Origin: Escherichia coli
Lineage (GTDB): Bacteria; Pseudomonadota; Gammaproteobacteria; Enterobacterales; Enterobacteriaceae
Assembly: GCF_048403405.1 (NCBI RefSeq)
Contig: NZ_CP183129.1
Direction: 5' to 3' (one strand)
DNA: 64,000 nt
Shown one piece after another: positions 40,703 through 64,000 of the stretch. Position 1 is the stretch's first letter. Each line of letters begins with the position of its first letter. The position numbers were made by a program, and so were the translations under genes. The notes below the pieces were generated by a model. It saw nothing but the letters and a program-made list of their open reading frames with translations, was not told where the DNA came from and made no database searches.

Positions 40703-40779
40703 TGGCGTGGCATGCAGGATTCGAACCTGCGACCAACCGCTTAGAAGGCGGTTGCTCTGTCCAACTGAGCTAATGCCAC
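40703..40779 (-). tRNA. tRNA-Arg (anticodon UCU), phage-encoded, CCA end encoded
   Basis: Reverse complement GTGGCATTAGCTCAGTTGGACAGAGCAACCGCCTTCTAAGCGGTTGGTCGCAGGTTCGAATCCTGCATGCCACGCCA folds as cloverleaf; anticodon loop CTTCTAA; T-arm GGTTCGAATCC; close to E. coli argU. Confidence 0.85.
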
Positions 40780-46307: not shown

Positions 46308-46912
46308 TGGCCTCTGTAGTAGAGATCTGCAATCGTGCGCTGTCCAATATTGGCAATAGCCGCAGCATTAACAGCCTGACGGAAGCCAGCAAGGAAGCGG
46401 GGGAATGTTCGCTGCACTTTGAGGCCTGCCGTGATGCTGTGCTTTCTGATTTTGACTGGAACTTTGCTACCAAACGCGTGGCGCTTGCAGATACGAGCAA
46501 TCCACCGCCTGACTGGGAATATGCGTATCAGTACCCGTCCGATTGTCTGCGCATTACTGAAATTATGCTTCCTGGTGTACGCAATCCAACAGCAGCAATG
46601 CGTGTTCAGTACGAAGTTGGTGCAGACACCAACGGAACAGGAAAATTGATCTACACAGACCAGCCGCAGGCATGGCTCAAGTATGTCTCTCGCGTTACAG
46701 ATGTGAACATGTTTGATGCCATTTTTATGGAGGCGTTGGCTTGGCGTCTTGCGGCAGCTATTAACATGGCGCTGACTGGGAATGCAGACCTCGGTACGTT
46801 TGCCCTCAATATGTACAATCGCGTGATTCTTAGTGCTGGCTCGCATAGCCAGAATGAATCACAGGAACCACAGCCACCGGTTGACGAGTTTACCATTGCG
46901 AGGTTGTCCTGA
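46307..46912 (+). CDS. tail tubular protein A-like (gp11-like)
   Basis: 201-aa ORF, size and position as T7 gp11; overlapping start/stop with neighbours. Confidence 0.5.
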   Translation: MASVVEICNRALSNIGNSRSINSLTEASKEAGECSLHFEACRDAVLSDFDWNFATKRVALADTSNPPPDWEYAYQYPSDCLRITEIMLPGVRNPTAAMRVQYEVGADTNGTGKLIYTDQPQAWLKYVSRVTDVNMFDAIFMEALAWRLAAAINMALTGNADLGTFALNMYNRVILSAGSHSQNESQEPQPPVDEFTIARLS

Positions 46913-49383
46913 TGGCTATCAGTTGGATCCAGCCCAGCTTTGCCGGTGGTGAGATTGGACCGTCGTTGTACGGTCGTATCGACATGGCGAAGTACCAGGT
47001 GGCATTGCGCAAGTGCGATAACTTTATCGTGCGGCAGTATGGCGGCGTTGAGAATCGACCTGGTACGCGTTTTATCGGTGCCGCCAAATACCCAAATCGG
47101 AAATGCCGCCTGATCCCGTTCCAGTTCTCGACGGTTCAGACCTATGCTCTGGAGTTCGGGCACCAGTACATGCGCGTTATCAAAGATGGTGCGTTGGTGC
47201 TGAACAGCAGCAATGTTATTTATGAAATTGCCACGCCATATACTGAAGCCGATCTGTTCCGAATTAAATTCACGCAAAGCGCCGACGTGCTTACGCTGGT
47301 TCACCCGGCATACCCGCCGAAAGAGTTGCGCCGCTACGCGCATGACAACTGGCAACTGGTTGATGTGGTAACGAAGAACGGGCCATTTGAAGATATCAAT
47401 ATTGACGAGTCAGTGACGGTTTATGCCAGCGCCAGCACCGGGGCAATTACGTTAACGGCAAGCGCCTCTATTTTTGGCGCGGAGCAGGTAGGCAAATTGT
47501 TCTATCTGGAACAGCCTGCAGTGGATTCAGTGCCGGTATGGGAAACCAGTAAGAGTACGTCGATTGGCGATATTCGCCGTGCAGGCAGTAACTACTATCG
47601 CGCCGTTACAGCAGGCAAAACAGGCACTTTGCGCCCTTCGCATACAGAAGGCACATCATGGGATGGCTGGGGCGGATCCGGTGATGATGATACTGGCATT
47701 GAGTGGGAGTATCTGCACAGTGGGTTTGGCATTGCCCGTATCACTGCTGTAAACGGCACTACTGCAACTGCCGAGGTGATTTCCTATATCCCTTCGCAGG
47801 TCGTTGGCGAGGATAATGCCAGCTATAAATGGGCTAAATATGCCTGGAACAGTGTTAATGGTTATCCTGGCACTGTTGTTTATTATCAACAACGTCTTTA
47901 CTTCGCCGCATCGACTGCGTTCCCTCAGACTATCTGGACCAGCCGTACCGGGGATTATAAGGATTTTGGCAAAAGCAATCCTACGCAGGATAACGACAGA
48001 ATTATCTACACCTATGCCGGGCGTCAGGTTAATGAGATCCGCCACCTGATTGATGTTGGTTCGCTGGTGGCGCTGACTTCCGGAGGTGAGTACGTCATCA
48101 CCGGCGACCAGAACAAAGTGTTAACCCCATCATCATTTGCATTCAGCTCTCAGGGGTCAAATGGCTCAAGCAACGTCCCACCAATTGCTGTGGCGAATAT
48201 TGCTCTGTTCGTCCAGGAGAAAGGCAGTGTTGTCCGTGATCTGGCCTACTCATTCGATGTTGACGGCTATCAGGGGAACGACCTTACTATCCTTGCCAAT
48301 CATCTTTTTCAGAAGCACAGCATTGTTGACTGGTGCTTCTCGATTGTCCCTTACTCCAGCGCATTCTGCATTCGTGATGACGGTAAATTATTGGTAATGA
48401 CCTATCTGCGTGATCAGCAGGTTTTCGCATGGGCACCACAATCCAGTACCGGAAAATATGAAAGCACATGCAGTATCAGCGAAGGCAATGAAGATGCGGT
48501 GTATTTCGTCGTTAACCGAACCGTTAACGGGCAAACAGTGAGATACATCGAGAGACTGTCCAGCCGTTTATTTACCAGCGATGAAGATGCTTTCTTTGTT
48601 GATTCTGGCCTTAGCTATGATGGAAGAAATACGTCTGACAGAACGATGATCATCACTGGTGGTTCTGGCGAATGGGATTACCGCGCGGAATATACAATCA
48701 GTGTTTCTGGTGGTGCGTACTTCACCAGTAGTGATGTCGGCGCGCAACTACAGTTCCCTTATACCGGAACGGATCCTGATACTGGCGATGAAGTGTCAAA
48801 AGAATTACGTTGCGACATTATTTCTGTAACCAGCAATACCGCTGTAGTGGTTCGTCCTAACAGGAACGTCCCGCCATCCCTCAGGAATGTGGCCACCACG
48901 AACTGGCAGATGGCGCGCCGGGCATTTGGCGGCTTGTCTCATCTTGAAGGTCAGACCGTAAACATTCTCTCTGATGCGAACGTGGAACCACAGAAAGTGG
49001 TTTCCGGAGGTGCCGTCACGCTGGAATCTCCGGGGGCTGTAGTGCACATCGGCCTGCCAATAACTGCTGAATTCGAAACACTGGATATCAACATTAACGG
49101 ACAGGAAACGCTGCTGGACAAAAAACAGGTGATCCCCTCCGTTACTCTGGTTGTGAATGCCAGTCGCGGCATCTGGGCGACTACGCCCGGCGGTAAATGG
49201 TACGAATATCCACAGCGTGAATTCGAGTTCTACGATGATCCTGTTGATGATGCTACCGGAAAAGTAGAAGTGAAACTGGACAGTAACTGGGGCAAAAACG
49301 GACGTGTAAAAATCCGTCAGCTTGATCCGTTGCCGCTGTCTGTTCTTGCCGTTATTCCTCGCCTTACTGTTGGGGGATTCTGA
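46912..49383 (+). CDS. tail tubular protein B-like (gp12-like)
   Basis: 823-aa ORF following the gp11-like gene, size as T7 gp12. Confidence 0.55.
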   Translation: MAISWIQPSFAGGEIGPSLYGRIDMAKYQVALRKCDNFIVRQYGGVENRPGTRFIGAAKYPNRKCRLIPFQFSTVQTYALEFGHQYMRVIKDGALVLNSSNVIYEIATPYTEADLFRIKFTQSADVLTLVHPAYPPKELRRYAHDNWQLVDVVTKNGPFEDINIDESVTVYASASTGAITLTASASIFGAEQVGKLFYLEQPAVDSVPVWETSKSTSIGDIRRAGSNYYRAVTAGKTGTLRPSHTEGTSWDGWGGSGDDDTGIEWEYLHSGFGIARITAVNGTTATAEVISYIPSQVVGEDNASYKWAKYAWNSVNGYPGTVVYYQQRLYFAASTAFPQTIWTSRTGDYKDFGKSNPTQDNDRIIYTYAGRQVNEIRHLIDVGSLVALTSGGEYVITGDQNKVLTPSSFAFSSQGSNGSSNVPPIAVANIALFVQEKGSVVRDLAYSFDVDGYQGNDLTILANHLFQKHSIVDWCFSIVPYSSAFCIRDDGKLLVMTYLRDQQVFAWAPQSSTGKYESTCSISEGNEDAVYFVVNRTVNGQTVRYIERLSSRLFTSDEDAFFVDSGLSYDGRNTSDRTMIITGGSGEWDYRAEYTISVSGGAYFTSSDVGAQLQFPYTGTDPDTGDEVSKELRCDIISVTSNTAVVVRPNRNVPPSLRNVATTNWQMARRAFGGLSHLEGQTVNILSDANVEPQKVVSGGAVTLESPGAVVHIGLPITAEFETLDININGQETLLDKKQVIPSVTLVVNASRGIWATTPGGKWYEYPQREFEFYDDPVDDATGKVEVKLDSNWGKNGRVKIRQLDPLPLSVLAVIPRLTVGGF

Positions 49384-49847
49384 TGATCGACGTTCAAATT
49401 ATTCCCGCTACCGAAGAGCATCTTCAGATGATTTTGCCGGATGTTCGTCAGGCTGATATTGACGAACTGTATGCGGTATCGCTGATGACTACCGAAGATG
49501 CGCTGCGTGTTGGTCTGCGTACTGCGACTATGGCCTGGTCAGGATTTGCGAACGGAGAACTGGTAACCATGTTTGGCGTATCTCCGGCGTCAATGATCGG
49601 TGGCAATGGTACGCCCTGGCTGGTAGGAACCAGCCGTATTGAAAAATATCAGAAGACATTTCTTCGCCACTGCCGCCCTGTATTGCAGCAGATGCTGGCA
49701 GTTTATCCGCGCCTGGAAAACTACGTCGACGAGCGAAACCATGTTGCCAAAGCATGGCTGCACTGGCTTGGATTCAGGCTTGAAGAAGCCGCGCCTTATG
49801 GTGCTCTTGGTCTTAATTTCCACAGATTTCACATGGAGAGAAAATAA
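49383..49847 (+). CDS. hypothetical virion protein (gp13-like position)
   Basis: 154-aa ORF. Confidence 0.4.
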   Translation: MIDVQIIPATEEHLQMILPDVRQADIDELYAVSLMTTEDALRVGLRTATMAWSGFANGELVTMFGVSPASMIGGNGTPWLVGTSRIEKYQKTFLRHCRPVLQQMLAVYPRLENYVDERNHVAKAWLHWLGFRLEEAAPYGALGLNFHRFHMERK

Positions 49848-50422
49848 TGTGCGATCCGGTTATTGCTGGTGGCGCAATGCTCGCCATGAGTGGCATTCAG
49901 GCATACACCCAGTACCAACAGGGAAAGTATGCCTCGAAGGTTGCAGAAGCGAACGCAGATATAGCCACAGCTCAGGCAAATGATGCAATAAACAGAGGTA
50001 ACGCTGAAGCTGAGCAACGACGCAGAGAGACCCGACAGCGGCTTGGTACACAGGCGGCGACAATGGGGGCTACCGGCGCTGATTTATCTACAGGTAACGC
50101 GCTGGATATATTTGGCGACACTGCCCAGTTTGGCGCTCTTGATTCGCTGACGACGGTGAATAACGCGCAACGCGAGGCTTACGGTTATCAGGTTCAGGCT
50201 GCCAACTATAAAGCAGAAGCCAGTTCAGCCCGTAAACAGGGGAATGTAGGAGCAGCAACAACATTGCTCACTGCGCCTCTGAAGGCATACGGTGCGTACC
50301 AGATGTTTGGTGGGACGTGGAGTCCGTTCTCTAAAGGAAGTACATCTAGTGGTGGGACGCCAATGTTATCTAACTCAGGTTTTATGAATTCTGACTCCCG
50401 ATTCAAAATAGGAGGTTACTGA
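49847..50422 (+). CDS. internal virion protein (gp14-like)
   Basis: 191-aa ORF starting MC, Ala/Gln-rich, size and composition like T7 gp14. Confidence 0.5.
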   Translation: MCDPVIAGGAMLAMSGIQAYTQYQQGKYASKVAEANADIATAQANDAINRGNAEAEQRRRETRQRLGTQAATMGATGADLSTGNALDIFGDTAQFGALDSLTTVNNAQREAYGYQVQAANYKAEASSARKQGNVGAATTLLTAPLKAYGAYQMFGGTWSPFSKGSTSSGGTPMLSNSGFMNSDSRFKIGGY

Positions 50423-53169
50423 TGCCTGTTGTTCCTACTACATCCGGACGTCAGGTGCAAAGTCGTGGTGTGCAAACCGGTGGTTTTCAGATCTTCGATG
50501 TTCCTCAAGCAGATCAGGTGCTGGCGAATGTCGCAGATCAGTATGCGGTGGCATATGGTGAAGCCAGGCAGAAAGCGAATGTTGCTATGGCCCAGGAGGC
50601 GTTACTGCAATTTAACCAATTTGCAGATGACCAGATTAACAACCCTGAAAGTGGGCTGATTTCTAAACAGGGTAAAAACGCTCTTGGTCAGAGTGACGCT
50701 GTTATGAAAAATATGCAGGAAAGGGCTCAGGCATTATTAGGCTCAATTCCTGAAAGTGAGGAAAGGAATAAATTATCCTTTCAACTCCAGCAGTCTATGC
50801 AGTCTTATTACAATCAGGCACGTCGATATGAAGTTGGGCAGTTTCAGCAATTCCAAGATCAAACGTATTTGTCAGGAAATGCATTGGCTGTCACTCAGTC
50901 TGCGGGGCTATATAGCGATAACCAAGCATTTGTCGATTTAGCCAAGCAGCGATTTGAATCTATTGATCAATACGCTGATGCGCATGGGCTTCCTGATGAG
51001 TGGCGTGTTCAGCAGAAAACTCAGCTCAAGGAACAAATGGGGCAGCAAGCATGGATAGGAAATATCGCTCAAAAATACAACGAGTTTCTTCAGGTTAATG
51101 GAGAGCCAGGGGATCTTGATGGTGTGAGTCGTGCAATATCACATGGTAATTCATTGGATGCTCGTGGTTTACGTAATAATAACCCTGGTAATATTGAAGC
51201 GAGCAAATCTAACCCGTGGGAAGGTCAGATCGGTAGCGATGGACGTTTTGCAACGTTTGCTACCCCTGAGCATGGAATCCGCGCGTTGGGTAAAAATATG
51301 TTGTCTTACCAGCGTCAAGGCTATGACACCGTTAGCGAGATTGTTAATCGCTATGCTCCGGCTAGTGATGGTAATAATACTGATGCTTATATTAGGGCAT
51401 TGTGTGGTGAGCTTGGTGTTGGGGAGAATGATCAGCTTGATATCTCTAACCCAAAGACACTAGCTGCTTTATGTGCTGGGATTATTAAACACGAAAATGG
51501 CAGTATGCCTTATAGCACCGAACAGCTTGAAACTGGTATCTCGGCAGCCCTTGGTCTAACTAACCTTGATTCACCTAAGCGTTATACAGGCAATGCGGCA
51601 TTTGATGCTATGAGCCCTCAAATGCAAATACAGGCATTGAGGCAGGCTAATGAGCTGAGAAATCAGTACCGCCAGCAGTATGCGGACCAGCTTAGCACCG
51701 TAGTTAAAGATGCATATTCAGCCCTTGATGAAGGATTGAAACCTGAGAAGTTACCTTCTGAGGACGATTTTATCCGGGCCAATGGTCCGCGCATTGGCGC
51801 TATGAAGTGGAAGGATATGCAGGCGCAGATACAATATGGAGGTGTCATTGGTGCCGCTAAAGACCTCACTCCAGAAGGACGACAAGACATTCTTGAACGT
51901 TTACGTCCACAGGATCCAAACGCTCCTGGATTTGCAGCTAACCAGCAACGCTGGGAGAAAATGCAGGCCAAATTTAAAGAGATGGATAGGGAGTGGGAGA
52001 TTCAGCAGGGAAGAAACAGGTTCGTGTCTTCAATGCAAAATAACTTCCCGCTGGACCCGAACGACAAAAACAATCAGGCAGCGGTAGACCGTTATTTCGC
52101 GCAGGATATCGCGCCTTCGTTTTCCATATCTGATCCGCAGAGCATCAATACACTGGTCACCGTCACAACTAAAAGCGGCATGATACCAACTCAGGTTAAA
52201 ACAATGCTTAACAGTGGAGCAACATCAAGAGATCCTGCGCTGGTTGTCCCGATGGCAAAATTCTACGGTCAGTTATTCGATAATAATCCGGCGGCAGCGG
52301 CAACACTTGATAAAAGTACGATGGCATTTTACGGCAAGGTTTACGATTATTCCCGCGCTGGCGTGCCGGAGGATAAGGCTGTTGATATGGCTTACAGCCA
52401 GGTGTTCCAACAGGATGACCGAATGAAACAGATGCTTTCCACTGCCATGCGAGACAAAAAATATGTCGCGGCGAGGGCAACTGCTGCACAAAATAACGCC
52501 AGCAGTCTGACTTCCTTTGGTTCGTGGTCTCCGGATATTACCGATCCAGGAAAATCAAATGCGGCCTATCAGCGAGATTACCAGACAATTTACGATGCTA
52601 ACTTTGTACAGACAGGTGGCGATGCAGAACAGGCTGAGAAAATGACCAATGCCATGATCAGAACCACCTGGGGAGTTTCTACGGTTAATGGCAAAGCAGA
52701 GGTTATGAAGTATGCACCTGAGGCATTGTACGGAGTAAATAATGGTGCTGGTAACTGGATACAGGGGCAGTGGGAGCAGGAAAAACGCGAGCTTAAATCA
52801 AAATCCTTTGGCGGTCCTCGCAGTGATACGGACTTAATACTTGTTTCTGATGGCCTTACGGCAAGGGATAGGAGTTATGCTGTTATGGTTTTACAGCCTG
52901 ACGCAAACGGAGCGATAGAACCGAGAAATTATATTGGAGAAAATGGTCTCCCTGTTCGTTTCAAGCCGGATCAGCTGACATCTCCAATGTACAGGCAAAC
53001 CATTAAGTTCCAGCAACAGCGTGTTGATGAGGCTAGAGTGCGGAGAGAAGGCAATCCGCTGCCGCAGTTCAGCAATAAAGATGGATATACTCCTCCAGAT
53101 CTGACCAAACCATTCGGTTATGGTTCAGCCAATTACCTTCCGAGCAATATATACGCAGGGGGCAAATAA
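50422..53169 (+). CDS. internal virion/ejection protein (gp15-like)
   Basis: 915-aa ORF in the core-protein position; contains a conserved-looking segment GLRNNNPGNIEASKSNPWEGQ...GIRALGKNM. Confidence 0.5.
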   Translation: MPVVPTTSGRQVQSRGVQTGGFQIFDVPQADQVLANVADQYAVAYGEARQKANVAMAQEALLQFNQFADDQINNPESGLISKQGKNALGQSDAVMKNMQERAQALLGSIPESEERNKLSFQLQQSMQSYYNQARRYEVGQFQQFQDQTYLSGNALAVTQSAGLYSDNQAFVDLAKQRFESIDQYADAHGLPDEWRVQQKTQLKEQMGQQAWIGNIAQKYNEFLQVNGEPGDLDGVSRAISHGNSLDARGLRNNNPGNIEASKSNPWEGQIGSDGRFATFATPEHGIRALGKNMLSYQRQGYDTVSEIVNRYAPASDGNNTDAYIRALCGELGVGENDQLDISNPKTLAALCAGIIKHENGSMPYSTEQLETGISAALGLTNLDSPKRYTGNAAFDAMSPQMQIQALRQANELRNQYRQQYADQLSTVVKDAYSALDEGLKPEKLPSEDDFIRANGPRIGAMKWKDMQAQIQYGGVIGAAKDLTPEGRQDILERLRPQDPNAPGFAANQQRWEKMQAKFKEMDREWEIQQGRNRFVSSMQNNFPLDPNDKNNQAAVDRYFAQDIAPSFSISDPQSINTLVTVTTKSGMIPTQVKTMLNSGATSRDPALVVPMAKFYGQLFDNNPAAAATLDKSTMAFYGKVYDYSRAGVPEDKAVDMAYSQVFQQDDRMKQMLSTAMRDKKYVAARATAAQNNASSLTSFGSWSPDITDPGKSNAAYQRDYQTIYDANFVQTGGDAEQAEKMTNAMIRTTWGVSTVNGKAEVMKYAPEALYGVNNGAGNWIQGQWEQEKRELKSKSFGGPRSDTDLILVSDGLTARDRSYAVMVLQPDANGAIEPRNYIGENGLPVRFKPDQLTSPMYRQTIKFQQQRVDEARVRREGNPLPQFSNKDGYTPPDLTKPFGYGSANYLPSNIYAGGK

Positions 53170-56100
53170 TGCCGATATATGAACAGGATCCTAAAGAGTT
53201 GCTTGGCGAGGATATTCAGCAAATAGCAGCACCTGATGACAGTAATTTCTATATGGAAACACCTTCTTTGCTTTCTGCTGTGAACCCATTTACCAGTGAT
53301 CAACGCGTTCAAAGGTCTAGACAAGCAGCATTTCGTATAGATAACACGCTGGGTAGCTTTATTGCCAGTGCTCCTTTCAGTCAGTTTGACAGGGTTGAAG
53401 GATATAACCCATTTGATAACGATGCAGCAGATATTAAAGGCTATGAAGATTTTGCAGATTCGTTTATCAACTCCGGTTCGCATGAAGAAACAATGGCAAT
53501 TAAACATCGAATCGATCAGCAGAGAGCTGACATGGAATACAATTCAGGCTTGGGATTTGCTGGTACAGTCTCTTCTGTAGCAATGAGATTAGCAGATCCA
53601 TTCAATGCGATTTCTATGTTTATTCCGTTCGGCGCTGTCGTTCGTGGCGGTCGTATTGCAGAAACAGCCGGACGTTTTGCTTTAGCCAATGCTGCTGGCA
53701 GTGTTGCTTCAGAGGCCGCATTGCAGGCCACTCAGGAAGCTCGCTCACCGATGGAGAGCGTATCGAACGTTGTTGTTGATGCTCTCGTTGGTGGGATCCT
53801 TGGTGCTGGTGCACAGCTACTTGCTGGACCTAGCGCGCGCGAGGCAGTGGTTAACTCAGTAGGTAATCATTTGCGAGGTATGGATTCTCCTCAAAGCATT
53901 GGTGCAGCTCAGGTTTTCAATACCACACTCGATCAGGAACAGCTTGCTGGACTTGGACTTGCTAACAAAACGTTGAGTGTCACTCCTGCTGGCCGCTTGG
54001 CGCAATCACCATCTCTTGTTTCCCGTCAGATTAACCAGCAGCTTGCCGAAAATAACTATTTCTTCGCCAAAAATGATGAGGGGTTGGCTACGTTTACGGC
54101 AGTCGAGACTAAGATTAAGCAATACGACGCCATGCTTTATAAGCAGATGGAAGCTACTCGTGATGCTTACCAGCAGTACAGCAAATCTGTCAGCGCCCGC
54201 GGCGTGAAGAGGATGAACTTTATTGATTTCAATGAAGCTGTTGGCATGGCTATGCGCCGTGGTGATCAGAGTGATATTCCTGAGGTTTCACAAGCAGCCG
54301 CCAGAATCCGCCCCATTTTTGAGACCACAAAAGCCCGTATGCAGGAATTGGGGATCCTTCCTGAGGATATCGATGTCGTGACGACGAAGAGTTATCTTCC
54401 CCGCATTTATAAGTTCGATAAGATACTTTCCGACCGCACTGAATTCAGAGGGCGAATTGCCAACTGGATACAAGGGATTAGTGCCAAAGGTGCTGACAAA
54501 GCAGGTCAGCGAATTGAAAAGATAAATTCATTGCTAAAAACTGCAGAGGAATCAGCACCGCGCGCTGATGCTCTCGCTAGTGAAATCGCTGAAGCGGAGA
54601 AATGGTCTGGTAAAAAAATTCTACTCATGGAAGAACTGGATAAACGAAATAAGCTTATATCTCAGGAGACTGACACACAGGCGCGTCTTACAAGAATAGA
54701 AAAAGAGTTGGCCGAGACTTCATCAGAAAAACTTCAGGCAAGAATGATGAAAGAAAGCTCTGACCTTAAAACACGCCTTGATGATATAGCGCAGGCAAAG
54801 AGTGAGCTTCCTGTCTATCAGCGCCATATGGAGTTGCTGGATAATCCACGGAAATATCGTTCTGAGCTTCGCCGACTGCAAAAACGGGCAAATTCAACCA
54901 CAAGGCTGAATGCAAGCCGCGAGCGAGCACTGAAGCAGATGGAGCCTCTATCCCGAGAGGAAGCAGAGGACGCTGCTGACGAGATCGTGAATAAAATAAT
55001 AGGCGCACCTTCCGGGCTTGTACCAGCCGATATTATCCCAGAGAGACTCGTTGGTCGGGCTGGTTTCACTAAAAGCCGAACGCTGCTTATTCCTGATGAG
55101 CGTATAGAAGATTTTCTTGAATCAGATGTTAACTACATCATGGAAAGTTATCTCCGGCAGGTGGCACCAGAAATTGAGCTGACTGCGCAGTTTGGCCGTA
55201 AAGATATGGGGGAGCAAATCCGTCAGGTTAGTGAGGAATATACCCGGCTAATAAAAGAGGCTAAAACACCTAAACGACGTGCAGCTCTTGAGAAGCAACG
55301 GGAGGCTGATATTAGGGATATTACGGCTATGCGTGACCGACTGCTTGGTACTTACGGCGCACCTCAAGATCCACGCAGTTTCTTTGTTCGTGCCGGGCGA
55401 GTTGCTAGGAATATTAACTTCCTCCGTTTGCTTGGTGGAATGACCGTCTCCGCTGCAACTGATCTGATGCGACCGATGATGCAGCATGGCCTGAGAAAAT
55501 CTCTCGGACCAATGGTAAGCATGCTTAAAAATATGGACTCAGTGAAAATTGCAACCAGGGATTTGCGAGAAATGGCAGTTGGGCTTGATTATGTCCTGTC
55601 TACGCGCACAAAGGCTATAGCGGATCTTACTGACCCCTATAGCCGGAGAAGCGCCGCTGAGCGAGGTCTGAACTGGATGACGCAGAAATTCGGTAACTGG
55701 ACGCTGATGAATCAGTGGAACAGCGCACTTAAATCATGGTCTGGGATGATAGTGCAGTCGAGGATACTTGACGCGGCTCGCCAAGTTTCTGCTGGTGGCA
55801 CGCTCTCCAAAAGTGAAATGCGGAAGATGGCACAGGTCGGCATCAATGAAGATGTTCTGCGCCGAATCGGGGAGCAATTCGGGAAGCACGGAGAGGATAT
55901 GGACGGGCTGTTAACCGGGCATAGTCATCTGTGGGATGACCGTTTCGCTAGAGAGATTTTCCAGTCTGCAGTGCTGAAAGATGTAGACTCAGTGATTGTA
56001 ACGCCTGGCGTAGGTGATACACCGCTGTTTTTTAGTAAAGAAGGCTGGAAGATGATCACGCAGTTCAAAACGTTTATCTTCGCACAGCATAACAGGGTGC

Positions 56101-56558
56101 TAGTATCTGGTATCCAGCAGGGCGATGCTGCATTCTATCTTGGTGCGCTTGGCACGATTGCGCTTGGCTCAATGGTCTATATGATGAAACAGAAGTTAAG
56201 CGGTCGCGATATCGACTACAGCTGGAATAACCTTGTGAAAGAGGGGATCGACCGGGGCGGAATGCTTGGCTGGCTCTCTGAGCCGCTGAATACCGTTGAG
56301 AACATAAGCGGCGGTAGGTTTGGTCTTGGCGCGATGTTTGGTGCGCCTCCGGTATCAAGGTTTCAGAGTCGTAATGCTATTGGTGCTTTACTTGGTCCTA
56401 CCTTTGATCTTGGCGGTGATGCCGCGACGGTTGCAAATGGTGTACTTAACGGAGAATTTGACAGCCAGCAAACCCACGCTGTCCGTAAAATGCTACCTTT
56501 TCAGAATCTGTGGGCGATATCACCATTACTAAATAAAGTTGAAGAGCAGATGAAATAG
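53169..56558 (+). CDS. internal virion/ejection protein (gp16-like)
   Basis: 1129-aa ORF, largest core protein, precedes tailspike region. Confidence 0.5.
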   Translation: MPIYEQDPKELLGEDIQQIAAPDDSNFYMETPSLLSAVNPFTSDQRVQRSRQAAFRIDNTLGSFIASAPFSQFDRVEGYNPFDNDAADIKGYEDFADSFINSGSHEETMAIKHRIDQQRADMEYNSGLGFAGTVSSVAMRLADPFNAISMFIPFGAVVRGGRIAETAGRFALANAAGSVASEAALQATQEARSPMESVSNVVVDALVGGILGAGAQLLAGPSAREAVVNSVGNHLRGMDSPQSIGAAQVFNTTLDQEQLAGLGLANKTLSVTPAGRLAQSPSLVSRQINQQLAENNYFFAKNDEGLATFTAVETKIKQYDAMLYKQMEATRDAYQQYSKSVSARGVKRMNFIDFNEAVGMAMRRGDQSDIPEVSQAAARIRPIFETTKARMQELGILPEDIDVVTTKSYLPRIYKFDKILSDRTEFRGRIANWIQGISAKGADKAGQRIEKINSLLKTAEESAPRADALASEIAEAEKWSGKKILLMEELDKRNKLISQETDTQARLTRIEKELAETSSEKLQARMMKESSDLKTRLDDIAQAKSELPVYQRHMELLDNPRKYRSELRRLQKRANSTTRLNASRERALKQMEPLSREEAEDAADEIVNKIIGAPSGLVPADIIPERLVGRAGFTKSRTLLIPDERIEDFLESDVNYIMESYLRQVAPEIELTAQFGRKDMGEQIRQVSEEYTRLIKEAKTPKRRAALEKQREADIRDITAMRDRLLGTYGAPQDPRSFFVRAGRVARNINFLRLLGGMTVSAATDLMRPMMQHGLRKSLGPMVSMLKNMDSVKIATRDLREMAVGLDYVLSTRTKAIADLTDPYSRRSAAERGLNWMTQKFGNWTLMNQWNSALKSWSGMIVQSRILDAARQVSAGGTLSKSEMRKMAQVGINEDVLRRIGEQFGKHGEDMDGLLTGHSHLWDDRFAREIFQSAVLKDVDSVIVTPGVGDTPLFFSKEGWKMITQFKTFIFAQHNRVLVSGIQQGDAAFYLGALGTIALGSMVYMMKQKLSGRDIDYSWNNLVKEGIDRGGMLGWLSEPLNTVENISGGRFGLGAMFGAPPVSRFQSRNAIGALLGPTFDLGGDAATVANGVLNGEFDSQQTHAVRKMLPFQNLWAISPLLNKVEEQMK

Positions 56559-61145: not shown

Positions 61146-63797
61146 ATGACGGTCTCAACCGAAGTTGACCACAACGAATACACTGGTAACGGAGCTACGA
61201 CATCATTTCCGTATACCTTCCGTATTTTCAAAAAATCCGACCTGGTTGTTCAGGTGTCTGACCTGAACGGGAACGTAACAGAATTGGTTCTGGATACTGA
61301 CTACACAGTAACCAATGCTGGAGGATATAATGGCGGTAATGTAATTCTGTCGAAGGCGTTGGCTAACGGTTATCATATTTCTATATCACGAGAGCTCCCG
61401 GTTACGCAGGATACTGATTTGCGTAATCAGGGTAAGTTCTTCGCTGAGGTACATGAAGACGCGTTCGATAAACTGACAATGCTTATTCAAAAGTGTTTTT
61501 CATGGATGAGGTTAGCACTTATAAAACCAAGCATTCTGGCTAACTATTATGATGCAAAAAATAATAAGATATCAAATCTAGCAAATGCCACTGACAGAAA
61601 CGATGCTGTCAATAAAGGTTATGTTGATGATCTTTTTACTGGAGGTGTAACGCCTACACCTAACAGCGTTAAAAACGATATTTTTACAAATCACCAAAGA
61701 AAGATTGTAGCTACGATGCCGCTTCTTTTTCCTGAATATGATGCGATTATGGCTGCTAACCCGTCAGCAACTTATATGTATCCTCAAGGATTCTGCGTTA
61801 GCGAAGATTTGATATACATCACTTATCCATTTGAGCCTAAACAGACGAATAATGTCGTCGCAGTATTTAACATATCTGGTATTTATCAAGGTTATTTCTA
61901 TGTTCAGGCTGGCGGCCCAGGCTTCGCTGCTGAAGGAATCGTGGTTACGTCAGACTATGGCCCCAAAAAAATGTTTGTTGGTCACACAAACGGAATACTG
62001 CGTGAATTTAATATGGAGGGGGCATTATACGGAAGCAATCTGCCTCTTGTACAAAACCATGATGTTGGATTATTCAACCAGTTCAGCTACAGAAGAGGTA
62101 TATGGCTCGTTGAGCAGAATGCGCCAGAAGTAGGACAGAAAATCACAAGAACTGTACTTGCAGTGTTCGACAGTGGTTTCAATCGCCTGTCAACTATAAC
62201 GCTGCCGTTACATGATGTTGGGTATGTAACTAAAAGCACCTCACCTTATGCGCCTTATTTCAACAAGCGTCAGGGTATTGCGGTAGGTGATAACTACTTT
62301 GTCTGCGGCTATGGCGGCTTCATAGCTGATGGGGCAGGAAGCGCAGGATATAACGAATATCAGGGCAGCAAAGTTTTTAACCCTGACGGTACAAAGCGAA
62401 CTGAATCAATGCTTCATCCTCAGGCCATGATGGATTTAATGAAAGCCGCAGGATTGAACGTCACTCGCATAGAAAATGAAGGCGTTTGTGTTTCTCAGGA
62501 TGGAAAATCCATTTATTCACTTTACATTCATCAGGAAAGAACTGGCTCTGAACCTTACAATTCAGGTTTGGTTATTTTCGAAGATTTCTCCACTGATAAA
62601 GATGCTATCGATTTTACACCTGCATCCAGGCTTTACCGCGGATTTGATATCGATCACGCGAGCATTGGGGTATATCCCCGTAGTGCGAAGGGGATTGTTA
62701 ACCCTGTAGATGGTACGTTGTTCACTAACATGACTGAAATTCTTCGCTATATGCAGGAGATGAGTCAGAAGGCATTTAATTTTTACACAGGGACTGTCAG
62801 CATTGCTGATATATCTGGCGTGGCAATCCCTTCCAGCACATATGTTGAAATACTGAATGCGAATAATCAGACTTTTATAGTCAACTATTATTCATCTGAT
62901 AGTGGTATTAGTTATTTGGTTGCAACTAATCCTTCTGGTGACTTTGTATTTGTGCGCCAGCGACCGGCACAGTGGGCATCTAACTTAACCATTCAGCAAA
63001 ACGCAGATCCTGATACAAACCAATTAAACCGCATCACTGCATCATCATATGCCGGTGCAACTACAAACTCTCAGAAAATATTGGTCCTTGACCAGCAGGC
63101 TACAGCTAGCGCAAATAGCTTGGTATTGGGCGGTAGTTCTTCTGTGTTTAGGTCTGCCACCACGGTGGATATTGCATGCAACAGCGACCCGACAGCATTG
63201 GGAGGAACCATACGCTGGCGGTTTTATGATACAGGTCTTCGCCCGTTTGCTGACAATACCTATAATTTTGGTCAGGCATCGTTTCGTATTAAAGACGCCT
63301 ACTTTGCAAATGCCCCAACCGTTTCATCAGATGCCACGCTGAAAACCAATCCCGAGGCAATATCAGATTTAAGTGAAATGCTTTCTTCTGATAGAGACAG
63401 CATTCTTGATGCCTGGGGCGATATTTCTGTTGTGGCGTATCGATGGCTCGACGCTATATCCATGAAGGGCGATGGTGCCAGATGGCATTTTGGCGTCATG
63501 GCTCAGCAGGTAAGGGATGTATTCTTGGCGCACGGAATTGATGGAACCAGATTTGGCCTTCTTTGCTATGACGAGTGGGATGATATTTTTGAGCCGGTAA
63601 TCGCGACTAAAGAGATTACCGATACGTCTGGTGAGTTGGTCACCGTCGAATATGACACCGGAGAACAGAGGCTGGTTAAAAAAGCGGGTAGTTCATGGGG
63701 TATACGGCCTGACCAGTGCGCTTGGCTTGAGGCTGCATATCAGCGCCGTCGATGCGATCGTATTGAAGAGCGACTCGAACTATTGGAATCAAAATAA
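61146..63797 (+). CDS. tailspike/tail fiber with N-terminal podovirus adaptor domain and C-terminal intramolecular chaperone (peptidase S74-like) domain
   Basis: 883-aa ORF; N-terminus resembles T7 gp17 N-terminal domain pattern; C-terminal ~130 aa resemble self-cleaving chaperone domains of endosialidase-type tailspikes. Confidence 0.8.
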   Translation: MTVSTEVDHNEYTGNGATTSFPYTFRIFKKSDLVVQVSDLNGNVTELVLDTDYTVTNAGGYNGGNVILSKALANGYHISISRELPVTQDTDLRNQGKFFAEVHEDAFDKLTMLIQKCFSWMRLALIKPSILANYYDAKNNKISNLANATDRNDAVNKGYVDDLFTGGVTPTPNSVKNDIFTNHQRKIVATMPLLFPEYDAIMAANPSATYMYPQGFCVSEDLIYITYPFEPKQTNNVVAVFNISGIYQGYFYVQAGGPGFAAEGIVVTSDYGPKKMFVGHTNGILREFNMEGALYGSNLPLVQNHDVGLFNQFSYRRGIWLVEQNAPEVGQKITRTVLAVFDSGFNRLSTITLPLHDVGYVTKSTSPYAPYFNKRQGIAVGDNYFVCGYGGFIADGAGSAGYNEYQGSKVFNPDGTKRTESMLHPQAMMDLMKAAGLNVTRIENEGVCVSQDGKSIYSLYIHQERTGSEPYNSGLVIFEDFSTDKDAIDFTPASRLYRGFDIDHASIGVYPRSAKGIVNPVDGTLFTNMTEILRYMQEMSQKAFNFYTGTVSIADISGVAIPSSTYVEILNANNQTFIVNYYSSDSGISYLVATNPSGDFVFVRQRPAQWASNLTIQQNADPDTNQLNRITASSYAGATTNSQKILVLDQQATASANSLVLGGSSSVFRSATTVDIACNSDPTALGGTIRWRFYDTGLRPFADNTYNFGQASFRIKDAYFANAPTVSSDATLKTNPEAISDLSEMLSSDRDSILDAWGDISVVAYRWLDAISMKGDGARWHFGVMAQQVRDVFLAHGIDGTRFGLLCYDEWDDIFEPVIATKEITDTSGELVTVEYDTGEQRLVKKAGSSWGIRPDQCAWLEAAYQRRRCDRIEERLELLESK

Positions 63798-63894: not shown

Positions 63895-64000
63895 ATGAAT
63901 GGCACGGTTACGGCGGATTCACTGAATCAAGGGTTAAGCTTGGGTGCGCTGGCCTCTGTCGTCTACGGCGTTCCGCCAGAGGTGGCTCTCGGTGCTCTGG
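63895..64000 (+). CDS. hypothetical protein, 5' end only (continues beyond window)
   Basis: ATG at 63895 opens a frame (MNGTVTADSLNQGLSLGALASVVYG...) running to the window edge. Confidence 0.3.
   Translation, partial: MNGTVTADSLNQGLSLGALASVVYGVPPEVALGAL

Follow-up and report, generated by a model that had tools for sequence, protein, structure and literature searches.

The window analysed here, a stretch of 64,000 nucleotides from Escherichia coli, contains a series of virion genes that includes the following:

46912 to 49383, + strand: gp12-like tail nozzle, 823 aa (PDB 8ck1_A "Tail Nozzle", E = 1.7e-214; phrog_376, tail protein)
49847 to 50422, + strand: gp14-like internal virion protein, 191 aa (phrog_418 "internal virion protein", E = 1e-72)
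50422 to 53169, + strand: gp15-position internal virion (ejection) protein, 915 aa (ORF matched by phrog_1044 over its whole length)
53169 to 56558, + strand: gp16-like internal virion protein, 1129 aa (phrog_342 "internal virion protein with endolysin domain")

The assignment of the gp12-like nozzle fixes the gene order as T7-like: tail tubular A, nozzle, and gp13-, gp14-, gp15- and gp16-like genes. The gene for the 915-aa protein lies downstream of the nozzle, gp13- and gp14-like genes and upstream of the large gp16-like gene. In E. coli SCU-101, PGAP annotates the upstream orthologue, directly before the gp15-position gene, as "virion core protein, T7 gp14 family". The NCBIfam scan of the five operon proteins gave zero matches. 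Escherichia phage EC.W1-9 encodes a "hypothetical protein" with 100% identity to the 915-aa protein, whose gene is best read as originating from a temperate podovirus prophage resembling epsilon15 and TL-2011b.

The preliminary description had taken the 915-aa product for a gp15-like podovirus core protein. This is supported by its gp15 slot in a T7-like operon, and its predicted structure is compatible with it. The full-length AF2 model (mean pLDDT 83.8) is almost wholly helical, with the hydrolase domain described below as an internal cassette, and chains of T7 gp15 are its four best Foldseek matches in the PDB. Comparison of T7 gp15 with the scaffold of the 915-aa protein revealed no sequence-level similarity. 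A hydrophobicity scan of the protein found zero hydrophobic segments (maximum KD19 0.74) and no signal or transmembrane segment. The neighbouring 1129-aa gp16-like protein contains two hydrophobic segments, and phrog_342 aligns with it only from profile column 192 onward. Neither Pfam SLT nor the Enc34-type HMM detected a muralytic domain in this neighbour, and nothing was found for it among the PDB sequences.

Within the 915-aa protein, attention had been drawn to a segment suspected of being a compact, conserved and cell-wall-active domain. The segment is real: positions 51166-51361 of the window (+ strand) translate exactly into GLRNNNPGNIEASKSNPWEGQIGSDGRFATFATPEHGIRALGKNMLSYQRQGYDTVSEIVNRYAP, a stretch of 65 aa that corresponds to residues 249-313 in the ORF at 50422..53169. 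Its conservation is borne out by the homologues, but it covers just the N-terminal half of a domain of ~130 aa. The borders were thus drawn too narrowly, and the predicted catalytic residue Glu358 falls 3' of the end coordinate 51361. The domain and its surroundings are as follows:

51100 to 51159, + strand: N-side linker from scaffold to domain, residues ~227-246 (pLDDT 58-67 in blocks 231-250, and <50 at 240-244)
51160 to 51555, + strand: Enc34-type (PHA02564) putative peptidoglycan hydrolase domain, conserved core, residues ~247-378
51175 to 51192, + strand: NNNPGN signature motif, residues 252-257
51352 to 51354, + strand: Tyr311, equivalent of the substrate-positioning aromatic Trp79 of Enc34 (alignments to 7q47 and five-way alignment)
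51388 to 51390, + strand: Tyr323, equivalent of Enc34 Tyr95
51493 to 51495, + strand: Glu358 of the HENG motif, corresponding to Enc34 Glu131 (alignments to 7q47 and ORF39)
51556 to 51615, + strand: C-side linker from domain to scaffold helices, residues ~379-398 (no regular secondary structure at 377-391; a long helix from 399)

In an alignment of 260 homologues the N-side linker region is unconserved and family conservation stops at ~378. The suspected wall-active domain can be identified, from sequence and structure matches, as a predicted Enc34-type (PHA02564) peptidoglycan hydrolase, a family with muralytic members. The HMM- and structure-based search that had been proposed for the segment matched 7Q47 and 9VVP by sequence, and 7q47 by Foldseek. 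With phmmer against PDB sequences, the matches were 9vvp_L (Gp29; E = 5.2e-35) and 7q47_A, which is the Enc34 endolysin's catalytic domain (E = 3.7e-15; query 247-362 against chain residues 7-136). The alignment with the catalytic domain of Enc34 ORF39 gave 41% identity, and the Enc34-type family HMM matched residues 241-405 (E = 8e-74). An AF2 model of the isolated domain (pLDDT 91) is all-helical, has 7q47 as its sole Foldseek match, and as a predicted structure is superposable on the all-helical fold of 7Q47. An assignment of 7Q47 to the Pae87/PF11860 muramidases was rejected: Pae87 is found under 7Q4S and 7Q4T, and 7Q47 is the Enc34 endolysin. Muralytic activity has been demonstrated experimentally for the Enc34 endolysin ORF39deltaC (PMC8943055) and for M4LysdeltaTMD, from the endolysin of Salmonella phage BSPM4 (PMC7143992). 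Our literature search on 9VVP and 8CK1 found nothing relevant, and a search on Enc34 and ejection found no paper tying the Enc34-type domain to ejection proteins.

The domain is widespread. Residues 241-407 are matched by 11,820 representatives of 50% identity clusters at E<=1e-3 (5,538 at E<=1e-10), and the Enc34-type domain is present in 808 phage records. Among the 144 best cluster representatives, 68 share the layout of the 915-aa protein. When the C-terminal scaffold was used as query, the word-indexed homologue search returned 9 proteins, and those of 713-745 aa share the C-terminal half only. Residues of the segment that are at least 90% conserved in the 260 homologues are R248, G249, R251, N252-N257, W266, G268, D273, F279, G285, A288, Y296, G300, T303, A312 and P313. 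Conservation in the family peaks at NNNPGN (97-100% per position), which is invariant in a five-way alignment of the 915-aa protein, Enc34 ORF39, epsilon15 gp15, LM33_P1 gp43 and a Klebsiella orthologue. Tyr323 is 98% Tyr in the 260 homologues and invariant in our alignments, and Glu358 is Glu in ~100%. As read from these alignments, the catalytic signature of the family and 20 or more near-invariant residues are present in the domain.

Comparison with the Klebsiella phage orthologue indicates, at the level of substitutions, that the gene, including the domain, is under strong purifying selection. The segment is 94% identical as protein while its synonymous sites are saturated; dN/dS of the whole gene is 0.08, and dN of the domain is 0.073, again with saturated synonymous sites. 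Chance or composition might in principle mimic such conservation, as might a gene overlapping in another frame or strand, and ORFs do overlap here at 51131..51463 (+, other frame) and 51663..51971 (-). This explanation is ruled out by E values of 1e-15 to 1e-35 against solved structures, by the thousands of homologues, by the lack of PHROG matches for the overlapping ORFs and by the low dN/dS in the annotated frame, and we give it practically no chance.

Possibly, the domain is a catalytically weak or inert module that binds peptidoglycan, and anchors or places the periplasmic tunnel on it without cutting the wall. The Enc34 domain has a large, branched and conserved binding groove (PMC8943055), which would suit binding, and the lytic transglycosylase of T7 gp16 is required under some conditions only (review PMC8954989); mutants in T7 gp16 reportedly infect later or less well in the cold or when the cells are in stationary phase and highly cross-linked (Moak and Molineux 2000, cited in that review). 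Moreover, the Trp79 equivalent is Tyr311 in this phage, unlike in Enc34 and all close relatives of the 915-aa protein, which have Trp at this position. Yet Tyr occupies column 311 in 17% of the 260 homologues (W 80%, F 2%), so the aromatic is retained, and the GH73 and GH23 homologues need only "a matching aromatic residue" at the Trp79 position (PMC8943055). The retention of Glu358, Tyr323, HENG, NNNPGN and the other near-invariant residues, together with the strong purifying selection on the domain, also argues against an inert binder, and we regard this alternative as quite unlikely. Glu131 of Enc34 is the proposed catalytic residue, assigned by superposition and without mutagenesis (PMC8943055).

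An enzyme could still act at another stage, as the phage's endolysin or a second endolysin at late lysis. In Enc34 and Chi-like phages the Enc34-type domain serves as the genuine endolysin, both phrog_1044 and phrog_873 are labelled "endolysin", and RefSeq gives the same name to TL-2011b gp37. However, Enc34 ORF39 (Hafnia phage; PDB 7Q47; Cernooka et al. 2022, PMC8943055) and M4Lys are endolysins of ~240 aa that have a transmembrane domain at the C-terminus and belong to the lysis cassette, whereas the 915-aa protein carries the domain as an internal cassette and is encoded in the structural operon. Relative to Enc34 ORF39, a loop of ~14 residues after HENGS is missing and Tyr replaces Trp79. 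Because the domain is internal, the protein lacks a hydrophobic segment and the gene lies between gp14- and gp16-like genes, the 915-aa protein shares the domain of the Enc34-type endolysins but is not one of them. The gene has no adjoining holin or spanin, and the helical product matches T7 gp15 in Foldseek. In addition, identical or related phages have a complete and separate holin-endolysin-spanin cassette: EC.W1-9 encodes holin, endolysin and endopeptidase, and E. coli SCU-101 encodes holin, GH19 and DUF2514. A role in late lysis is therefore very unlikely.

The chemistry of the domain deserves separate consideration. In epsilon15 gp15 and the gp16 homologues of Kayfunavirus it has been annotated as a lytic transglycosylase (GH23/SLT-like) rather than an Enc34/GH73-like hydrolase. 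The GenBank label of epsilon15 gp15, "putative lytic transglycosylase", stems from an HHpred match to SltB, and several Kayfunavirus records read "peptidoglycan lytic exotransglycosylase". GH23 and GH73 are both distant relatives of the Enc34 fold (PMC8943055), and a single catalytic Glu fits either chemistry. Contrary to these labels, Pfam SLT (PF01464) has no match at E<=1 in the 915-aa protein, nor any in epsilon15 gp15 or LM33_P1 gp43, although the same scan does detect T7 gp16 and TL-2011b gp37. The ES, GLMQ and AYNxG motifs are missing from the domain, and its catalytic Glu would lie near the C-terminal end, a permuted helix order compared to GH23 (PMC8943055). LC-MS of M4Lys products indicated GlcNAc release and suggested N-acetylglucosaminidase plus endopeptidase activity (PMC7143992). 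Overall, lytic transglycosylase chemistry seems unlikely.

Gp15 of Salmonella phage epsilon15 (842 aa; relatives phiV10 and SPN1S) is homologous to the 915-aa protein over residues 1-516, with 44% identity. It has the Enc34-type domain at an equal position (245-407) and in the same gene order. It differs in its non-homologous C-terminal half, in the Trp kept at the 311 position, and in being followed by gp16 (634 aa) and gp17 (918 aa) instead of a single 1129-aa protein. By comparison, gp37 of Escherichia phage TL-2011b (905 aa) is a full-length homologue with 29% identity (88% over the first 60 residues) and shares the flanks and the operon. In the place of the domain, it has a Pfam SLT/GH23 domain (PF01464) with ES, GxxQ and AYNWG motifs, and the Enc34-type HMM gave no match to it. 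Judged from these assignments, the SLT of TL-2011b and the Enc34-type domain in the same slot are a non-orthologous cassette replacement. In the alignment with TL-2011b, identity is 24% in the cassette and 23-24% in the scaffold. Identity thus fails to separate the two, and therefore the swap rests on the HMM and motif assignment.

The arrangement shares the gp14-15-16 operon logic of T7 (PDB 7K5C, 6YT5, 7EYB, 9JYY), in which a muralytic domain carried by the virion serves at injection (review PMC8954989). In T7, however, the enzyme is an SLT on the N-terminus of gp16, and gp15 (747 aa, the periplasmic-tunnel protein) has no enzyme domain. The gp16 homologues of Kayfunavirus (LM33_P1 gp43, 1295 aa; Gp29 of PDB 9VVP, 1295 aa) are ejection proteins of T7-like phages and carry an Enc34-type domain with ~50% identity to ours. 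There it sits at the extreme N-terminus, replacing the T7 SLT, whereas here it lies inside the gp15 homologue. In 9VVP, the partner of Gp29 is Gp28, a T7 gp15 homologue. Wall-hydrolase domains are well known to swap between gp16 and gp15 homologues, and SP6 gp36, K1E gp35 and phiKMV gp36, gp15-position proteins with lysozyme domains, offer a precedent for a muralytic gp15 (review PMC8954989). SP6 gp36 was rejected as a carrier of the Enc34-type domain: it gave no match to the Enc34-type HMM and has a GH24 Phage_lysozyme (PF00959) near its C-terminus instead (residues 770-905).

The explanation that we favour, with considerable confidence, is that residues ~247-378 are an intact peptidoglycan glycosidase domain of the Enc34 type (PHA02564), held between flexible linkers in a gp15-position ejection protein and predicted to act as a virion-borne wall hydrolase at the injection stage. 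It is grounded in the identity of the domain, its fold, catalytic signature and purifying selection, the gene order, and the SLT in the same slot of a homologue. That the 915-aa protein is part of the virion, when it acts, which bond it cleaves and that it is active at all are extrapolated from this ground. The protein would be packaged in the capsid alongside the gp14- and gp16-like proteins and, upon adsorption, be expelled via the tail into the periplasm. The small, all-helical domain could refold there and cut glycan strands locally, with Glu358 as putative acid catalyst and Tyr323 and Tyr311 positioning the substrate. The local cut would perforate the wall, and the trans-envelope DNA conduit could assemble through the opening. 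Wall cutting would then be carried by the gp15-like protein here and by gp16 in T7, and lysis at the end of infection would be left to the separate holin-endolysin-spanin cassette. Tyr311 in place of the Trp of close relatives, the "endolysin" label in PHROGs and the unsettled bond specificity of the family were counted against this explanation.

The arrangement of the 915-aa protein is already known in kind and poorly labelled in databases; it is no new kind of system. Labels range from "hypothetical" (GenBank, PGAP) to "endolysin" or "head protein" (PHROGs, RefSeq) and "lytic transglycosylase" (epsilon15 and Kayfunavirus records). This inconsistency arises because Pfam and NCBIfam hold no model of the domain, which is also why the preliminary description could not name the family. 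Our Pfam scan of protein and domain gave nothing but a sub-threshold GA_3 match. The main value of the present analysis hence lies in annotation, namely the correct family label, that of an Enc34-type hydrolase cassette in ejection proteins. In addition, the Enc34-type, SLT and GH24 domains, in gp15 or gp16, provide a natural cassette-swap set to study wall breaching by podoviruses, and the family supplies more small domains as candidate muralytic agents against Gram-negative peptidoglycan.

A more speculative extension, which we think rather unlikely, is that the internal gp15 slot is a hot-swappable muralytic cassette, filled by an Enc34-type domain here and in epsilon15 and by an SLT in TL-2011b. 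With the enzyme on this multi-copy subunit of the periplasmic tunnel and not on gp16, six to eight active sites might ring the conduit, and the domain might cut the wall as well as clamp the tunnel to it. Should the Enc34-type domain be a hydrolase without lytic transglycosylase chemistry, the choice of cassette would alter the muropeptide products at entry.

The 65 residues singled out in the preliminary description are the exact translation of window positions 51166-51361 (+), and correspond to residues 249-313 of the 915-aa protein encoded by the ORF at 50422..53169 (+). Their conservation is genuine. A phmmer search against all PDB chain sequences gave two matches in total, 9vvp_L 'Gp29' (E 5.2e-35, query 247-399) and 7q47_A 'Endolysin' (E 3.7e-15, query 247-362), the latter being the catalytic domain of the Hafnia phage Enc34 endolysin ORF39. 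With residues 241-407 as query, exhaustive HMMER searching recovered 11,820 representatives of 50%-identity clusters at E<=1e-3, of which 5,538 reached E<=1e-10, while tblastn found the domain in 808 phage records. Relative to the orthologue of Klebsiella phage ST512-KPC3phi13.3, dN/dS of the 915-aa gene was 0.08, and the segment showed 94% protein identity with saturated synonymous sites. The domain is intact and under purifying selection. Pfam and NCBIfam searches gave no match for it, which explains why the segment was left without a name in the preliminary description, in PGAP and in GenBank. Two overlapping ORFs in other frames or strands over the 915-aa gene did not match any family either.

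A profile- or structure-based search had been proposed for this protein, and both PDB sequences and Foldseek led to 7q47. A 57-sequence alignment was used to model residues 241-407 with AlphaFold2; the model had a mean pLDDT of 91 and matched 7q47 as its sole PDB hit (Foldseek E 8e-10, TM 0.72; next E>1). Sequence matches and modelled fold thus point to an Enc34-type domain as the cell-wall-active domain that had been suspected. Such domains are all-helical, highly diverged relatives of the GH73/GH23 lysozyme fold (PMC8943055). The expected compact domain is indeed present, but the flagged coordinates cover only its N-terminal half and leave out the codon of the catalytic Glu:

Positions of the domain in the window (+ strand)
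51160-51555, Enc34-type domain, conserved core at residues ~247-378
51166-51361, segment flagged from the sequence
51352-51354, codon of Tyr311
51493-51495, codon of the catalytic Glu358

The extent of the core follows from column statistics of 260 homologues, in which Glu358 of the HENG motif was ~100% conserved, Tyr323 98%, and the NNNPGN motif (residues 252-257) 97-100%, with Trp (80%) or Tyr (17%) at position 311. The proposed Enc34 signature consists of Trp79, Tyr95 and Glu131 (PMC8943055). In a direct alignment of the 915-aa protein with Enc34 ORF39, epsilon15 gp15, LM33_P1 gp43 and the Klebsiella orthologue, these residues aligned with Tyr311, Tyr323 and Glu358, and hence the catalytic Glu and the conserved Tyr are retained. 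Tyr311 differs from the Trp found in Enc34, epsilon15 gp15, LM33_P1 gp43 and the 89%-identical Klebsiella domain; the step from TGG to a Tyr codon takes two base changes.

In line with the earlier reading as a gp15-like core protein, gene order around 50422-53169 is T7-like:

Structural genes around the 915-aa gene
start 46307, tail tubular A-like, 201 aa
start 46912, nozzle, 823 aa (PDB 8ck1_A, E 1.7e-214)
start 49383, gp13-like, 154 aa
start 49847, gp14-like, 191 aa
start 50422, domain-carrying protein, 915 aa
start 53169, gp16-like, 1129 aa

PGAP names the gp14-like orthologue upstream 'virion core protein, T7 gp14 family'. The four best Foldseek matches of the full-length model came from the core and ejectosome structures 7k5c, 9jyy, 7eyb and 6yt5 (E 3.8e-5 to 1.5e-3), and a check of the chains identified all four as T7 gp15. 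Synteny makes a gp15-position ejection protein well supported; homology to T7 gp15 is no more than probable. A scan for hydrophobic segments found none in the 915-aa protein; the gp16-like protein has two. The latter protein (53169-56558, +) owes its PGAP name 'DUF919 family protein' to a marginal match of residues 530-575 to this nucleopolyhedrovirus Pfam family (23.4 bits vs cutoff 21), probably a helical or low-complexity artefact that makes the name misleading.

The slot that holds the domain is a putative muralytic cassette. TL-2011b gp37 (905 aa) aligns over the entire length of the 915-aa protein with 29% identity (88% in the first 60 residues), yet the same slot is filled by a Pfam SLT (GH23 lytic transglycosylase) domain with ES, GxxQ and AYNWG motifs. 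The Enc34-type HMM, run on a panel of ejection proteins, matched as follows:

Matches of the Enc34-type HMM
915-aa protein, residues 241-405
epsilon15 gp15, residues 245-407
LM33_P1 gp43, residues 2-137
Enc34 ORF39, residues 4-178

It did not match T7 gp15 or gp16, TL-2011b gp37 or gp38, or the gp13-, gp14- and gp16-like proteins of the window. The gp16-like protein also lacks an SLT match, and its alignment with phrog_342 ('internal virion protein with endolysin domain') starts only at profile column 192; therefore, the sole lysin domain of the ejection operon resides on the gp15-position protein. In Kayfunavirus, by contrast, it is the gp16 homologue (LM33_P1 gp43, 1295 aa) that begins with the Enc34-type domain. 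Gp29 of PDB 9vvp, also 1295 aa long, carries the domain at residues 3-150 and is partnered by Gp28, a homologue of T7 gp15. SP6 gp36, also in gp15 position, has a GH24 lysozyme domain instead, located close to the C-terminus. Among the best 144 cluster representatives, 68 resemble the 915-aa protein in having an internal domain (start at 200-420, protein >=650 aa), 23 are small stand-alone proteins, and in 12 the domain lies at the N-terminus of a large protein.

The scaffold is modular too, since its similarity to three Pectobacterium/Brenneria proteins (P0268-P0270, 713-745 aa; ~50% identity) is confined to residues ~510-913, the C-terminal half; the N-terminal half of these proteins is unrelated and has no NNPGN motif. 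In the phage collection, the domain also occurs in Mu-like Pseudomonas phages (DMS3, D3112, MP38; 'putative structural protein') and microviruses ('P5-like structural protein'), and proteins with it in bacterial genomes bear the names 'structural protein P5' or 'virion protein'. Papers on Stenotrophomonas T6SS effectors and on gut varidnaviruses cite 7Q47.

In PHROGs and RefSeq, the family goes under the label 'endolysin', which might suggest that the 915-aa protein lyses the host. However, Escherichia phage EC.W1-9, in which this gene is 100% identical, encodes a holin-endolysin-endopeptidase cassette of its own, and the related E. coli SCU-101 prophage carries two holins together with a GH19 endolysin and a spanin-like DUF2514 gene. 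The phage thus has a separate lysis cassette, whose equivalent here would fall just past base 64000, beyond the window, and the 915-aa protein is very unlikely to be the endolysin.

As a gp15-position ejection protein, it would be packaged in the virion, expelled via the tail after gp14 and refolded in the periplasm. Flexible linkers, modelled as a low-confidence stretch at ~227-246 on the N side and an unstructured one at ~377-391 on the C side, tether the domain to the helical scaffold. On their own, the domains of Enc34 ORF39 and of M4Lys, the Salmonella phage BSPM4 endolysin, degrade Gram-negative peptidoglycan (PMC8943055, PMC7143992), and LC-MS of M4Lys indicated N-acetylglucosaminidase and possibly also endopeptidase activity (PMC7143992). 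In the periplasm, the domain of the 915-aa protein would cut glycan strands locally with Glu358, so that a gp14-gp15-gp16-like conduit could cross the wall, a role that would be analogous to that of the lytic transglycosylase domain of T7 gp16 (PMC8954989).

Published work already covers the domain family, its structure and the principle that lysin domains move between gp15 and gp16 homologues. In the searchable literature we found no explicit assignment of 'transglycosylase' domains of the epsilon15-gp15 or Kayfunavirus-gp16 type to the Enc34 family, and the main use of our finding lies in annotation. Table 1 of the review PMC8954989 gives gp11 (229 aa), gp12 (499 aa) and gp13 (708 aa) as epsilon15 ejection proteins. 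This row looks inconsistent with GenBank AY150271 (7001-14189), where gp11 (201 aa) is the homologue of tail tubular A and gp12 (825 aa) that of the nozzle, and gp14, gp15 (842 aa, Enc34-type domain) and gp16/gp17 are syntenic with T7 gp14/15/16.

Relative to the Klebsiella orthologue, the 915-aa gene is a recombination mosaic. Identity is ~30% in residues 1-60, 60-80% in 61-240, mostly 87-100% in 241-780 and 53% in 811-840; synonymous sites are saturated to residue ~378, with dS 0.9 in 401-915. By contrast, TL-2011b gp37 shares 88% identity with residues 1-60 although it is distant elsewhere. The gene lies in a prophage. Of 5,426 complete E. coli genomes, 46 contain the 24-kb structural region with a coverage of >=80%. 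Despite the full identity of the 915-aa gene to that of EC.W1-9, an 883-aa tailspike/tail-fibre ORF (61146-63797, +) stands where EC.W1-9 has a 624-aa 'eliminase', apparently through an exchange of the receptor-binding protein. The prophage also contains a tRNA-Arg (anticodon TCT; 40703-40779, -) located between its terminase and portal genes, a feature likewise annotated in the SCU-101 prophage.
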